64,000 bases of DNA from Zootoca vivipara (taxonomy: Eukaryota). The stretch spans positions 38,750,001 to 38,814,000 of the forward strand of contig NC_083282.1 in the NCBI RefSeq assembly GCF_963506605.1, read 5' to 3'. Shown here in pieces: positions 6,001 through 54,000 of the stretch. Made by a program: the position numbers. How positions within the stretch are numbered: position 1 is the stretch's first letter; every line of letters starts with the position of its first letter.

Positions 6001-9000
6001 ATGGTAGTGTGGCTGAAAGTTCAGATCAGTGGTTTGGAACCTGCAGCCCATGGAACTATTCAGGCCTGCCAGGCCTCAGAAATTGGACTGCCAAGCCATA
6101 CCTACCATGCTGTCATATATGACATCAAGCAGGGGAAGTTCAAGCCATGAGGTCCTCATTTCTTCCTTGGTAGGGAAAACTGGCACTTTTAAAAGATGCC
6201 AAATAATGACAAGAGCCAAGTCTTGGCTGCAAAGGAAAAACCAGGAGTGCATTTCTGATTCATTCTTTGCAGCTGCACCTTGAATTCAAGCCAGGGAGGC
6301 AAAGGTAGTCTTCTTAAGGAGCTGCAGCTGCAAAGGGAGCTTTCCCCTTCACACCTGAAGGTACAATCACCTGATAGACAGATTGTGTTCCCCATCCCTG
6401 TTTTAGATGGCAGTAGGTAAACTGGGGTGCAATCTGAGGCTGTATCAGCTGCACTCTGATGCAAGGTTAGCAGCTGCACTACCTGCTGAAGGAATGTTTT
6501 TGTCTTCATGATACAAGTAATAAAATTCTTATGAAGACACCATCAATCTCCAGAGTTGCCTCATTCAAAGGAAACCCAAGACTACCTCTGGAACTTCCCA
6601 CCACTAGGGGAAAAGGAACAAGGAATGGTAACTTGTCCTTTTATATTGCTGTGAGTTTGTGGGTGCCAGGCTCCTATAATCTCTGGATCCAGCAAGCGTC
6701 GGCATTTAATCAAGGCTGATAGTGTTAAACCCCTGTGCCCAGCAAGTGTTAAAATATAAGCCAGGGTAGCTTCCTGTGTTTAGGTGATGGGCCGTTAAGA
6801 GAACCAAGAAAAGGGGTTTTGTGCCAGGTGACAAATGGGTGGGCCCCCTCCTTTCCTACTTAGATACTAGTAAGAAAGACAAAAACCAGAGATTAGACTT
6901 GAAAGTGTGTATAATGTGACCTAGAAGTTAAGTTGCAGGCTGGAAAGCCAGAGAGACTGAGCACAATGCTTGACTCCAAGGCTGCAGCTTTGGGAGAAGC
7001 AAGGCCCTTTTGAGACGCTAATGCTGTGAACCCCTCCATTGTAGGCTTGGGTTGTGTAAGGTAGGGAAAAGAAAAGCAGTGCATTTTTTCTTAAAAAAAT
7101 GTTATGGGGTACTCTCATTTTCCTCCTCCTATTGAAATACTGCTCCTCAGTGAGGCCAAACTTAGATTCACAAAATGTTTAGGGGTATGCGTACCCCCAG
7201 AAAAAAAGCACTGGTGAAAAGTAAAGGTAAAGGACCCCTGGATGGTTAAGTCCAGTCAAAGGTGACTATGGAGTGCGGCACTCATCTCGCTTCCAGGCCA
7301 AGGGAGCTCGCGGTCGTCCATAGACAGCTTTCTGGGTCATGTGGCCAGCATGACTAAGCCGCTTCTGGCCATGACGGAAGCCAGAGCACATGGAAATGCT
7401 GCTTACCTTCCTGGCGCAGTGGTACCTATTTATCTTCTTGCACTGGCATGATTTCAAATGGCTAGGTTGGCAGAAGCTGAGACAAAGCAACGGGAGCTCA
7501 CCCCGTCATGCAGATTTGAACTGCGGGCCTTCCGATGGGCAAGTCCAAGAGGCTCAGTATTTTCGAATCTCCACTGTGTCTCATTTCCAAAAGGAAACTG
7601 TTCAGCGGAGGCGGCCCAAGGCCCGCGCCCCCCGCGTGCCTCCGGATAGCGGCCTGAAGCCGCTCAACAGCTGAGAGGCGCAGTGGAGGTGACCCCAGGC
7701 AGCACCGGGGGGCGGCGGGCGGCGGGCAGGCTGGCCAGCGCCCCCTCCATTTTGGCACCCTAGGCAGCTGCCTAGTTCACCTTGATGGATGCACCGGCCC
7801 TGAATGTGGTTTGTACTAGGTTGCATCCCACTCCACTCCAAACTGGACATTCTAAACCTTTTCTCGTAATGGGTAGGCATTATGGGTAGCTGGGATGAAG
7901 CACAATTTGCTCTCCCTGCTGCTAGCCTTTTGAAAGGCATGGTAATAATGTATAGCCTTCTAGGACCTGGAGCTTTTTCCTTTGTTGACAAATGAAGGGC
8001 TGCTTGAGTAGTTCTTGTCTCTGCTTTCTGTGATTCACTGACCAAATGAGAACCCTGAACCAGCAGGTTGGCTGTGGAATGACAAGCGTTTTATTTTGCT
8101 CCTCCCTTTGCAGACTTCATGTGAATCAGCTAAACCAGAAATACAGGTAGAGAAAGAGGTGGAGGATTTCTAAAGGCAAACACCCTGACAGAACAGTAAA
8201 AAAACAAACAAAAACACCACGTCTTGAATGGAAAAATAACAGGGGAAAGTAGCTGTTTGAGAGAGCCTGGAGTGGTTGATACTCTTTCCAACGTGAAAAT
8301 GGAAGAAGCCGAGGTGGGCATTGATACTCTCATTGATGAGATGGATTATATCCCAGGTCACTTTCACTTAGATATGAATTTGAACTTTGAGTCTTCTTCA
8401 CCTATGAATTTCCAAGGGAGAGACTTGAAGCTGAAACGAGAGAGCCTAACCTATGAGCTAGAGCTCGAAACTGGCTCGCAACAGTATGCCATCAGAAACC
8501 TCCTTGGGGTCTTTTCTTTCTACCTGGAAGAAGTGGAGCAAGCCAAGGAGATTTTCCTCTGCATCTCTCAGGAGGACCCTGAGAATCTGAACACTTGGGC
8601 CAACCTCGCCTACGTTTATGATAGGCTGAACAACGAGCAAGAAGAGGCTAGGTGCACCGAAAGACTCTCCCTCTTAATGGGCTTGGATTCAGAAGACCAC
8701 AAGCTGCAAGGGGACCCCCAGCTCAGAGCAGCCCGTTGCTTGGCTGAGCAGGGCTATGCTTATGCCTTCGATGTTGGGCTGGTGAACGAAGAAGAGAAGA
8801 TGGAGAAACTGACCGCAGGCCTCACTCTCTACGGCAAGGCTCTTGCTTATGGAAAGCAGGTAGGCAGGCTGTTTTACCTTCTGATGTCACTTGCCATTCA
8901 ATGGGTCATTCGTTGTAAGAGGGATACTAGCCAATACACACGCACACCCTTTTTCCTTTTCTGTTTCAGAAGGTGCACCGTACCCATCTGTTGTCTAGAA

Positions 9001-51000: not shown

Positions 51001-54000
51001 CACACGATGTACTTACGTCCCAGCAGACATCTTCTTGGGTTGATGAAACTGCCTCAGATTGTTCTGGTTATATTTTAGATGTTGCCAGACAGGCACAAAG
51101 GACACTGAATAGGACGCTGAACTCTTGTACTCTGGGCTAGAGTTCCTGCCTCTGAAGGTCCACAATTCCTAAAAACATGCAGGCTCACATCCAGTAAAAT
51201 ACTTGAAGGCTACCGTATTTAAAGACTGACCTAACCAATCACAGCAAGAATAACTTTACAGGGTGGGATCAGGAGTGTTAATGTAATCAATGAAAGGCAA
51301 ACCCACAATAACAAATGTATGGCAGGGCTATCCTTGATGCATTCCACAGACTGGTTCTGAAGATAAAAATCTATCATGAGTAAAGTAACTTACTGTATAT
51401 ATATATTTCGAAACCTGGTTGAGAGTGCAAGGGAAGGAGGAGCAAAAGAACTGGAACCTGTGGCAACCAGTGAGAGAGGGAACACAGGACATAGATTTAA
51501 ACCAACAACCTCTGGAATATGAGATTTGGGAACAGGTTCTCCTAGTGAGAGGGGGAGAGCCTGCCCCAATCAGAGACTATGATGCTTGGGCAAAAGAACA
51601 AGAAGGGGTATAGAGAGGTGCTTTCCTAGTGGGAGTAGGAGAGCACAATCCATACGGTGCGCAAGTTGTGGGATTGGAAACTGTAAAAAATGAAAACTAG
51701 CATGGGGAATGTGCTAAAGAATATACACAACAGAAACAGAATGGGAGGGTGGGAAAACAGCAGGGATGGGAGTGGACGAAAGTTGGTATAGGATGAAAGA
51801 CTTAGGGATTTTGTAATTGATGGATGGATTAAAAAGGTCTGAACTGGATTGTTTTAAGGGACTGGTCGGGACTCCTAGGGAAACGTTTTCCGGGGAAGGG
51901 GGGGGACCTAGAGGGGTTTGTCATTTGATTTCAGATTTCTGAATCACTATTTCCCCTGCACACATGCACACTTTTATTCAATTTTGATGCAAATAAGCAC
52001 TGATTTAGGTGTAGTCCTGTCCATTTCTGTATACTCTATACTGACTAAATAATCTGGGCTTGTCTTTGGCTTTTATTTCGTTGTAACCACTGTAGCACAG
52101 GGAATTCATAAAAGAGTTTTTTATACCGTGTTGTTCTGAATGTATCATGGCCAAAACAGAAACCAAAGAGATGCCAAAGATGGGTGTATTGCCAGATTGC
52201 TTCCGCAAAGAGATTATATGTTTCTATAGCTGGCTAAACGTTTGACTATTCTAATAATAATAATAATAATAATAATAATAATAATAATAATAATAATTGT
52301 CCAGTAGCACCTTACAGACCAACTAAGTTTGTTCTGGTATAAGCTTTTGTGTGCATGCACACTTCTTCAGATAATGATTGACTATTGTCACTCATGTGAA
52401 TCTGCTGTTTCAATTTATTGATTTCTTAATTTTCCCATTTTCTTCACATGCCATTCCGCTGCAAATGTTCACTTGAGGATTATTATTCTTACATTCTTCA
52501 TGGAAGAATGGGGCTGCATGCTCCTTATGATGTGGATACAGCCCTAGTCTTCTATGTAGAGTTGACTCTGTGGAATAATCCTCAAGTGAACATTTGAAGC
52601 ACATTTCCCTCTCCCAAAGAATCTTGGGAGATGTCGTTTGTTAAGTGTTCCTAGGATTCTTTGGGAAGGATGCTCTGAGTGTGTGGTGCGTATGTAGCTG
52701 AGGTGGAAAAGACAAAGGGAATCCAAATTCATAACTCATTTGTCCTCACCCTAACCTAGTGGTGTGGTTTTAACTGAGAAGCACCGTCTGGCCAAAGTTG
52801 TCCATGCAACTCAGGGTGAATCTGCACTTGAACATGGGTCTCCCATGTTGACACCCAACACTGTGTTCCTACTACAGTGGTGCCTCGACTTACGAATTCA
52901 ATCCGTTCTGAAGGCACCTTTGTAGGTCTAAAAATTCGTAAAATTCGTAAGTTGAAAAGCTGGCTCCGTCTAAATACTGGCTCTGTCTAAATCTAAATCC
53001 ACCTGGGCTATTGCCTCTAGTCACACAGGATGTACACAAAGGTGCATGGGCAAAGGCTGTGCACCAAAAACTCCTCACATGTGTCCTGCAAGCACAGCAT
53101 TTACTCATAATGGGCCCATCCAAGGCAAACAGCCTCATATACCAGCGCCTGAAGAACATTGAACAACAAAACAATATGGCCATTATTAAGAAATTTAGCG
53201 CATGGTATATCCGTCTTCCACCTTCCTACATGGACTTCCGGTCACTATACCTGTCCAACCTAACCATCCCAAAATACAGACGAGCCTTCACGCTGGCCAG
53301 ACTGGACATGCTACCCTCCGCTGTCCTTGAAGGTCGATTCTCAAAAACACCATACCAGAATCGACTATGTCCCTGTGGAGTTGGCAGCGTGGAGACAGTA
53401 TCACATGTACTCCTGTCCTGTCCCCTATATAAAGACCTCAGGGATGAGATCATCACACCGCTGATATCCACCATTTCGGGCCGCCCATCCGAGGATATAC
53501 TGTTTTTCCTCCTGGCAGACCAGACTGCCCAGACAACAGAGAAGGTAGCCAGATTTACTGAGAGGGCCATGAGACTGAGGGCCGCCAGCTGAAGGACAAT
53601 AGCGCCTCCTGTGTGAACATATAATTAAGATCTCATCTGTTTCATTTTAATTGTGTTATGCTGAATCCCGAGACAGCACATTTTATTGTTATATATAGCA
53701 TTTTTCTTTTTTCTTTCCTTTTTACCAGGTTATGTAATATGAATCCTTTGTTGCAATGGCCTGTAGGCCACGCAAATAAATAAAGTTTTACTTACTTACT
53801 TACTTACTTACTTACTTACTTAACCAAGAAGCACCGTCTGGCCAAATTCGTCCATGCAACTCAGGGTGAATCTGCACTTGAACATGGGTCTCCCATGTTG
53901 ACACCCAACACTGTGTTCCTACTACAGTGGTGCCTCGACTTACGAATTCAATCCATTCCGAAGGCACCATTGTAGGTCGAAAAATTCGTAAGCTGAAAAG

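Follow-up and report, generated by a model that had tools for sequence, protein, structure and literature searches.

A lanosterol synthase-like paralog with a divergent active site lies beside TTC22 in the lizard Zootoca vivipara

The carbon skeleton of every sterol and triterpenoid is determined by an oxidosqualene cyclase (OSC), and the animal OSC is treated as a single, near-invariant housekeeping gene. In plants, the cycloartenol, lanosterol, and beta-amyrin synthases follow the principle that is considered here for an animal, in that duplicates change their product through a few pocket residues, although the plant duplications were independent and took place in another kingdom. Thimmappa et al. 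2022 (PMC9236903) state that all animals except sea cucumbers have one OSC, and in their account the parkeol and lanostadienol synthases of sea cucumbers are tandem genes with proven products that were duplicated from the lanosterol synthase gene (LSS) at the DNA level and whose switch in product is explained by a change of the single pocket residue F444 to L or Q. We analyzed a stretch of 64,000 nucleotides from Zootoca vivipara (NCBI RefSeq assembly GCF_963506605.1, contig NC_083282.1, positions 38,750,001 to 38,814,000 of the forward strand; hereafter the window, with position 1 as its first letter), in which an OSC gene of the kind called "lanosterol synthase-like" (LSS-like) in other squamates lies beside TTC22. 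Considered as a whole, the evidence makes it likely that this gene is an intact, relocated LSS paralog that encodes an active cyclase with changed specificity. An intact second OSC that is conserved in lizards and snakes contradicts the one-OSC statement of Thimmappa et al. A literature search, whose coverage did not extend to subscription journals, found no publication on a squamate OSC or LSS paralog, and the string "reptil" is absent from a 2026 review of 348 characterized OSCs.

The squamate gene resembles the sea-cucumber genes (PMC9236903) in being an animal OSC that arose from LSS by DNA-level duplication and in having a changed pocket. It differs from them in that it keeps F444 while many other positions are changed, in that it lies away from its parent gene, and in that it is known here from sequence alone, whereas the sea-cucumber products are proven. 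With canonical vertebrate LSS, represented by the human structure 1W6K, it shares the fold, the length, the VSDCTAE motif, C456 and C533, H232 and Y503, the cation-stabilizing aromatic residues, the QW motifs, and a multi-exon gene; it differs in forming a separate clade on a long stem, in its identity of about 57-61% to canonical LSS, in the replacement of about 20 residues, and in its TTC22 neighbor. The squamate database entries named "lanosterol synthase-like" are orthologues of the window OSC that exist as predictions with machine-given names, and some of them are fragmentary or skip a 28-nt micro-exon.

The OSC occupies positions 22172..51030 of the minus strand in 22 coding exons that run from an ATG at 51030-51028 to a stop codon at 22174-22172. 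Exons were located by a motif scan of minus-strand open reading frames (ORFs), by tblastn with the Podarcis lilfordi "lanosterol synthase-like" protein P0006, and by a search that scored splice junctions; the window OSC was searched exon by exon, and the orthologues P0005 and P0006 stood in for it in whole-protein comparisons. The exons total 2247 nt, or 748 aa plus the stop codon, which equals the length of P0006. Over the whole-codon parts of the exons, 665 of 731 residues (91.0%) were identical to P0006, and the exons were 84-100% identical to Podarcis muralis models. For both genes the best protein matches are from Podarcis, and by sequence the window is lacertid DNA near that genus; P. 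muralis was considered as its source because of one exon with 100% identity and was rejected, since other exons matched at 84-96% and TTC22 exon 1 at 97%. All 22 exons are open, and of the 21 in-frame introns 20 have GT-AG borders and one has GC-AG. The GC donor follows exon 7, at 37731/37730 on the minus strand, where it gave the best junction score (34/34, against 29 for the next candidate). Because 21 introns are kept, the gene is not a retrocopy, and the duplication at the DNA level that the preliminary description of this stretch had proposed agrees with this structure. The same description had placed the outer limits of the pair of genes at 8299 and 51030, and these are exactly the start codons of TTC22 and the OSC.

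Three parts of the gene model needed particular attention. The first exon (51017..51030, minus strand) is only 14 nt long (ATG TCT GCT GGG AC) and encodes MSAG plus two bases ahead of a GTAAGT donor; nothing else in 49193-54700 combined an ATG with an AC end in frame and a GT donor, and its residues match the N terminus of P0006 at 3 of 4 positions. An ATG at 49192, considered as the start of the OSC, was replaced by this exon. A single 85-nt "exon 10" (33074-32990) scored only 10/46 at its junction, and the 28-nt micro-exon at 33659-33632 was found instead; with both short exons in place, the model has the length of P0006. All four P. muralis UniRef models (P0004, P0005, P0007, and P0008) either join exons 10 to 12 (window 34309-32990) wrongly or leave this region out, and the isoforms published for the gene probably reflect errors of annotation. 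Finally, both runs of unread letters in the assembly, at 41830-41960 and 44687-44818, lie inside intron 5 (38740..44920, minus strand) together with a reverse transcriptase (RT) fragment and tandem repeats, so that no coding frame crosses them. The nearer gap is 102 bp away from the end of exon 5. In the orthologue, exon 6 follows directly on exon 5 (P0006 residues 184/186; junction score, 25/28), and no exon has therefore been lost in the intron that bears the gaps. The gaps probably hide repeats, and the length of this intron as assembled is an estimate.

Membership in the OSC family was clear. Exon 20 matched the Pfam family PF13243 (SQHop_cyclase_C) with an E value of 7.5e-13 and 48.6 bits, well over the cutoff of 26.1, and four further exons gave sub-threshold but colinear matches to PF13249 or PF13243. 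The orthologues carry both the N- and the C-terminal SQHop_cyclase domains, as members of the superfamily do, and exon 15 carries the catalytic acid in the sequence WIVSDCTAEA. QW motifs, by their usual definition, were read in exons 3, 4, 18, 20, and 21, and three of these five were also found by the stricter regular expression Q..DG[GS]W. P0006 aligned end to end with human LSS 1W6K (residues 1-728, 1040 bits). Used as a query, exon 20 (24148-24318, minus strand) retrieved 641 proteins with E values of 1e-5 or less, the top matches being Podarcis proteins named "terpene cyclase/mutase family member" and "lanosterol synthase-like," and the divergent last exon, exon 22, retrieved 10 matches, all 10 of them LSS-like and all from squamates.

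The phylogenetic position of the gene was examined with two trees. The larger, of 48 rows, was built from named proteins among the best 120 of the 641 matches; unnamed proteins, most fish sequences, and redundant isoforms were left out, and two short LSS-like models were kept. In this tree the LSS-like proteins formed a clade of 11 rows, from Podarcis (2), Rhineura, Pogona, Sceloporus, Candoia, Crotalus, Naja, Ophiophagus, and Thamnophis (2), with a Shimodaira-Hasegawa-like approximate likelihood ratio (SH-aLRT) support of 100 and a stem of 0.54. The adjacent clade of canonical squamate LSS had 15 rows and a support of 96, and the join of the two clades had a support of 80. In the smaller tree, of 29 rows, six LSS-like rows (support 100, stem 0.53) grouped outside the clade of canonical squamate LSS (10 rows, support 100), and the placement of the long LSS-like branch among vertebrates is left unfixed by that tree. 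The named squamate orthologues include P. lilfordi P0006, Candoia aspera P0009, Rhineura floridana P0011, and Crotalus adamanteus P0245. The window OSC thus lies outside the canonical squamate clade and is not an orthologue of canonical LSS. It would be an ordinary LSS, with no second gene, if the "LSS-like" name were an artefact, and the labels are in fact inconsistent: turtle "LSS-like" entries group inside the ordinary turtle LSS clade, and the LSS-like protein of T. sirtalis is labelled "lanosterol synthase." Such an explanation is extremely improbable, given the two well-separated squamate clades (SH-aLRT 100 for the one and 96-100 for the other), the presence of Naja naja in both of them (LSS-like P0244/P0010 and canonical LSS P0055), and the canonical LSS of Zootoca itself (P0032), which is only 60.8% identical to Podarcis LSS-like. 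Because Naja naja occurs in both clades, two genes coexist in one species. The window OSC is very probably a squamate LSS-like paralog at this position beside TTC22. The relocated paralog of the preliminary description therefore stands, and since a separate canonical LSS exists, the site beside TTC22 is not the home of a single sauropsid LSS, the circumstance that would have undone that description.

Among the turtle entries, the "lanosterol synthase-like" protein P0066 of Emydura macquarii, whose branch within the turtle LSS clade is long (0.25), shows pocket and gate changes of its own (W230Y, C233S, Y237H, I335S, and I524T), and this side-necked turtle may thus have a divergent OSC copy that arose independently.

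The residues of the active site were then read along the exons, with numbering taken from the alignment of P0006 to human LSS structure 1W6K; all exons lie on the minus strand. Exon 2 (48989..49157) is identical to P0006 at 52 of 55 residues. Exon 3 (48211..48349) contains the first QW-type motif and the stretch with Y98C, G99S, and P101V (DGHWPMECSGVV), and F103A is replaced in the window as well. Exon 4 (45869..45977) holds the QW motif QQLPDGGW, and exon 5 (44921..45042), the last before the intron with the gaps, gave a SQHop_cyclase_N match (E value, 0.0018) below the family threshold. Exon 6 (38643..38739) carries W192L within IPHLGKVW. In exon 7 (37731..37866), the sequence WCHAR retains H232 and shows C233A, followed by V236I and Y237T. 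Exon 8 (36725..36833) was placed by the junction search and the comparison with P0006, exon 9 (34592..34710) has I335S, and exon 10 (34212..34309) has S339C and I342F. The micro-exon, exon 11 (33632..33659), encodes (W)MGQDGMLIK and is identical to P0006 at 8 of 9 residues. Exon 12 (32990..33043) reads FIGSQTWDT, in which G380 is absent, T381 is F, N382 is I, and W387 is kept, and exon 13 (32563..32634) is identical to P0006 at 24 of 24 residues.

In the C-terminal half of the protein, exon 14 (31390..31440) was again placed by the junction search and comparison with P0006, and exon 15 (30984..31133; 49 of 50 residues identical to P0006) contains VSDCTAE and keeps F444, V453, D455, and C456 but has C449N and G450D. 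Exon 16 (29912..30008) keeps Y503 and has F521Y, and exon 17 (27779..27884) keeps C533 and has I524C. Exon 18 (26819..26884) contains a QW motif, exon 19 (24658..24738) keeps W581, exon 20 (24149..24319) contains a QW motif and the Pfam SQHop_cyclase_C match, and exon 21 (23206..23284) contains a QW motif. Exon 22 (22172..22351), which ends with the stop codon, keeps F696 and Y704 and has N697Y, C700G, and I702L. About 20 pocket, channel, and nearby residues are thus replaced in the LSS-like protein.

The conservation of these positions was counted over the scorable rows of a 36-row alignment of 11 LSS-like, 23 canonical, and 2 sea-cucumber proteins. At the positions examined, the canonical rows are nearly invariant from sea urchin to mammals (Y98 in 23/23, C233 and Y237 in 22/23, T381 in 22/22, and C449 in 21/21 scorable rows). 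The window and its clade keep D455, C456, C533, H232, Y503, W387, F444, W581, F696, Y704, and V453; in the LSS-like rows the counts were 11/11 for D455, 10/10 for C533 and W581, 10/11 for Y503 and F444, and 8/9 for H232, F696, and Y704. The replacements are also shared within the clade, with Y98C in 9/9, F521Y in 11/11, C449N in 10/11, and W192L in 7/8 rows, and with C233 and Y237 kept in none of 8. Variants other than those of the window occur at T381 (F/V) and N382 (I/M), the clade having V/A381 and N449. Neither of the two sea-cucumber proteins in the alignment (P0107 and P0114) has the squamate substitutions. Overall, 53 of 344 canonical-invariant columns have a clade-conserved replacement, and 175 of 344 are untouched in every LSS-like row.

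Several of the replaced positions have described roles. In human OSC, the channel through which the substrate enters is gated by Tyr237 and Cys233 (PMC3141018), and in a docking study (PMC8911567, Table 3) docked ligands touch W192, C233, V236, F521, I524, and I702 in the active site of 1W6K. The window thus lacks both this Cys233/Tyr237 gate and Tyr98 of canonical LSS. Tyr98, reportedly from the work of Thoma et al. in 2004, forces the boat form of the B ring. The triad T381/C449/V453, which we take to be the LSS counterpart of the Y/H/I triad of cycloartenol synthase and whose equivalent positions in plants are known specificity sites, is F381, N449, and V453 in the window and so departs from the LSS pattern. 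Plant OSCs of the chair-chair-chair type have Tyr where squamate LSS-like keeps His232.

These patterns suggest how the protein may have come about and how it may work. LSS would have been duplicated at the DNA level with its introns retained, and the copy would have landed beside TTC22 and stayed there at least since the divergence of lacertids and snakes; fast change (a stem of about 0.53 substitutions per site) would have followed the duplication, and then constraint at about the rate of canonical LSS. The enzyme would cyclize 2,3-oxidosqualene or a close analogue, with Asp455 of VSDCTAE, assisted by Cys456 and Cys533, protonating the epoxide, with Trp387, Phe444, Trp581, Phe696, and Tyr704 stabilizing cations, and with the His232/Tyr503 pair performing the final deprotonation. 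The clade-specific residues of the pocket and entry gate may then lead to a product that replaces lanosterol or is made alongside it, or to the use of another substrate. An active cyclase is proposed because the catalytic residues, the cation-stabilizing aromatic residues, and five QW motifs are kept, and a changed specificity because the replaced pocket and gate positions are almost constant between sea urchin and mammals. We give a changed product about an even chance. Its strongest form, a dedicated second triterpene cyclase of squamates with no lanosterol output, which would make another triterpene alcohol or use another epoxide such as dioxidosqualene, seems to fall slightly short of even.

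Rates of change also bear on whether the gene was retained for a function. In the 29-row tree, the stem of canonical squamate LSS measures 0.079 and that of LSS-like 0.53, a roughly sevenfold difference, and the summed crown paths of the same tree are similar (0.32 between the Podarcis and Candoia LSS-like proteins and 0.29 between the Zootoca and Liasis canonical proteins). P0006 is 60.8% identical to lacertid canonical LSS, which in turn is 62.1% identical to sea urchin LSS; within the LSS-like clade, the lacertid and boa proteins are 78.2% identical. The long stem together with a crown rate like that of canonical LSS argues for a burst of change after the duplication followed by ordinary constraint, in a gene that appears to have been kept and to have changed function. 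It is quite improbable that the gene is instead a decaying or non-enzymatic copy, drifting toward a pseudogene or serving a non-catalytic role. The fragmentary state of many database models would fit such decay, as would the failure of our searches to find the gene in geckos, Anolis, Varanus, and Elgaria, which could mean losses. These observations are set against 22 of 22 open exons in the window, usable splice sites at 21 of 21 introns, a length equal to that of the P. lilfordi protein, clade-specific residues that are conserved across lacertids, a worm lizard, and snakes, crown rates equal to those of canonical LSS, and the 175 untouched columns described above.

Some of our observations weigh against an active cyclase with changed specificity, or against the history given for it. 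Gly takes the place of C456 in 3 of 11 LSS-like rows (those of Pogona and the two Thamnophis), and a 365-aa Sceloporus model has lost key aromatic residues (F444S, Y503F, F696L, and Y704F); both would also be expected of decay, and because of them constraint may be relaxed in some lineages. Pocket positions were replaced in 5 of 17 cases versus 48 of 327 elsewhere, an enrichment that is suggestive but not significant (one-sided Fisher test, p = 0.10). N449 with V453 is also the pattern of plant lanosterol synthases, and lanosterol could still be the product of LSS-like, whose function is read here from residue patterns. Topology tests are compatible with more than one date for the duplication, and the adjacency in the cobra was read from locus-tag numbers and contig size rather than from coordinates; the data behind both points are given below.

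The same pocket enrichment figure is what one would expect of a subfunctionalized duplicate, one that still makes lanosterol and differs from LSS in the place or time of its expression, its kinetics, or its regulation. The catalytic and cation-stabilizing residues and V453 are all kept, as such a duplicate would require, and H232/Y503, described as the deprotonation dyad in PMC9236903 and tied to lanosterol-type deprotonation, is intact. Such a duplicate would nonetheless have to accommodate the replacement of about 20 pocket and channel positions that are near-invariant in 22-23 canonical rows (Y98, W192, T381, C233, and Y237 among them), as well as a stem that is about 7 times that of its canonical counterpart, and in the sea cucumbers (PMC9236903) one pocket change sufficed for a switch in product. 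We therefore regard subfunctionalization as the less probable explanation, although a serious one, and prefer an LSS-like cyclase with changed specificity.

The neighborhood and age of this paralog were compared across squamates. In Naja naja, the LSS-like gene (E2320_010302) and TTC22 (E2320_010304) have locus tags two apart on one contig of 224,088,900 bp, and in Sceloporus undulatus LSS-like and TTC22 lie on one contig of 251,488,870 bp. Because the cobra tags are two apart on one contig, the adjacency of TTC22 and LSS-like looks old, older than the split of lacertids and snakes. Canonical LSS and TTC22 were found on contigs of differing size in Anolis, Eublepharis, Heteronotia, Elgaria, and Phrynocephalus. 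Word-seeded searches, which are weak evidence of absence, found no LSS-like gene in geckos, Anolis, Varanus, Elgaria, tuatara, turtles, birds, or mammals, and since LSS-like was found in squamates only, a duplication within squamates is favored. In approximately unbiased (AU) tests, a tree in which LSS-like was held with all canonical squamate LSS had a log likelihood 1.17 above that of the free tree (p = 0.53), one in which it was held with the non-gecko squamates was 14.7 lower (p = 0.12), and one with a canonical amniote clade that left LSS-like outside, as would follow from an older, pre-amniote origin, was 0.98 lower (p = 0.41).

TTC22 (plus strand) and the OSC (minus strand) are convergent, tail to tail. 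The preliminary description had put about 1.3 kb between their stop codons, and the measured spacer (20843..22171) is 1329 bp (22172 - 20842 - 1), within which both 3' untranslated regions must fit. The in-window neighbors of the OSC are TTC22 and a fragment of it, and MCM3AP is not among them. Human LSS lies beside MCM3AP on 21q22 and human TTC22 near PARS2 and DHCR24 on 1p32. From the latter neighborhood came the suggestion that the OSC might be one member of a gene cluster for sterols or terpenoids, in physical linkage with DHCR24 or with tailoring enzymes. We consider such a cluster unlikely. The 64 kb contain TTC22, the OSC, the TTC22 fragment, and repeats, with no gene for DHCR24, a P450, an acyltransferase, or a reductase, and Pfam searches of 20 long ORFs outside the exons returned only RVT_1 and weak TPR matches; the coding matches besides the OSC were to TTC22 and its fragment only. 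The OSC is the sole enzyme gene found within this stretch, whereas a biosynthetic gene cluster has at least two non-homologous adjacent pathway enzymes. A weak hint of such a neighborhood in mammals comes from the pig (Sus scrofa) UniRef entry P0211, which is named "24-dehydrocholesterol reductase" and yet matches TTC22 exon 1 at 59% identity; the name has likely been carried over from the neighboring pig gene. Of the earlier interpretation, then, the relocated paralog beside TTC22 held and the absence of DHCR24 from the window was as it had stated, while the gene cluster found no support in the window.

TTC22 itself is complete. Its coding span (8299..20842, plus strand; ATG at 8299, stop codon at 20840-20842) consists of seven coding exons, mapped with the P. 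muralis protein P0124 to 8299-8859, 12610-12665, 15584-15699, 16001-16119, 17930-18091, 18844-18996, and 20312-20842. Each of the six junctions has GT-AG borders and preserves the frame; the exons total 1698 nt, or 565 aa plus the stop codon, the same length as P0124, with a per-exon identity of 95-100%. Exon 1, followed by a GT donor after 8859, was 97% identical to P0124 (E value, 1.2e-113), and as a query it retrieved 272 proteins with E values of 1e-5 or less, of which nearly all the named ones among the best 120 were TTC22. Orthology thus extends over the full length of the protein, and matches to TPR domains were weak.

Self-BLAST and tblastn detected a partial tandem duplicate of TTC22 at 57419..63067, upstream of the OSC and on the same strand as TTC22. 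It is composed of three segments: 57419-60164, which corresponds to 9000-11741 (94% DNA identity); 60164-61022, which corresponds to 16371-17235 (94%); and 61031-63067, which corresponds to 17173-19198 (97%). Copies of exons 5 and 6 lie at 61800-61961 and 62713-62865, retain their AG/GT sites, and differ from the originals at 1 of 168 nt and 1 of 156 nt, respectively; exons 1 to 4 are missing, and exon 7 was not seen before the end of the window. The 94-97% identity and the near-identical copies of exons 5 and 6 suggest a recent segmental duplication at the locus, and a second OSC copy possibly follows the TTC22 duplicate beyond the end of the window. In the skink Lerista edwardsae, the TTC22 cluster P0129 has two locus tags that are two apart (lerEdw1_014626 and lerEdw1_014628), a pairing that recalls the order TTC22, OSC, TTC22 fragment in the window.

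Besides these genes, the window (43% G+C overall; CpG observed/expected ratio, 0.29) contains repeats, and Rfam and tRNA scans of it returned no RNA family and no tRNA. In intron 5 of the OSC, an RT ORF (39535-40236, plus strand; RVT_1, E value of 7.5e-18) lies antisense to the gene in an AT-rich stretch (39-42 kb) with a strong GC skew that reaches the first assembly gap, and it is probably a long interspersed nuclear element. Between the two gaps of the same intron are a tandem repeat of 159 bp (43408-43916; 3.2 copies, 93% matches) and one of 123 bp (42531-42789; 2.1 copies). An interspersed repeat family of about 150 bp, with 75-94% identity and in both orientations, occurs in and around both genes (2468-2620, 5008-5156, 5798-5950, 19974-20129, 25966-26114, 27565-27715, 28827-28977, and 32237-32394) and looks like a short interspersed nuclear element. 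Two copies of a repeat of some 310 bp stand close together in opposite orientations (92%) in OSC intron 1, between exons 1 and 2 (49921-50229 and 50344-50577), with other copies in TTC22 introns and the duplicate (7221-7549, 11176-11494, 16286-16451, and 59599-59917). A block at 56050-56920 with 60% G+C raised the possibility of a promoter or CpG island for the TTC22 fragment. It proved to be a nested palindromic repeat with no obvious promoter, in which a repeat element is split by an inserted GC-rich segment (about 56222-56790) that is mostly palindromic, and 33 bp are duplicated in tandem at 56832-56902.

Taken together, the above-described results place in lizards and snakes a vertebrate OSC that is conserved and intact, has a rebuilt pocket, and, as far as we found, has not been studied, and they offer a clean example of a burst of change and then constraint after a relocating duplication. 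They point to a vertebrate triterpenoid chemistry that nobody has sought. If the LSS-like protein has no lanosterol output, it would be the first specialized triterpene synthase of a vertebrate, and it would feed a squamate-specific lipid, for example, a skin, gland, or signaling compound. Such an enzyme could explain unidentified triterpenoids in squamate skin or gland secretions.

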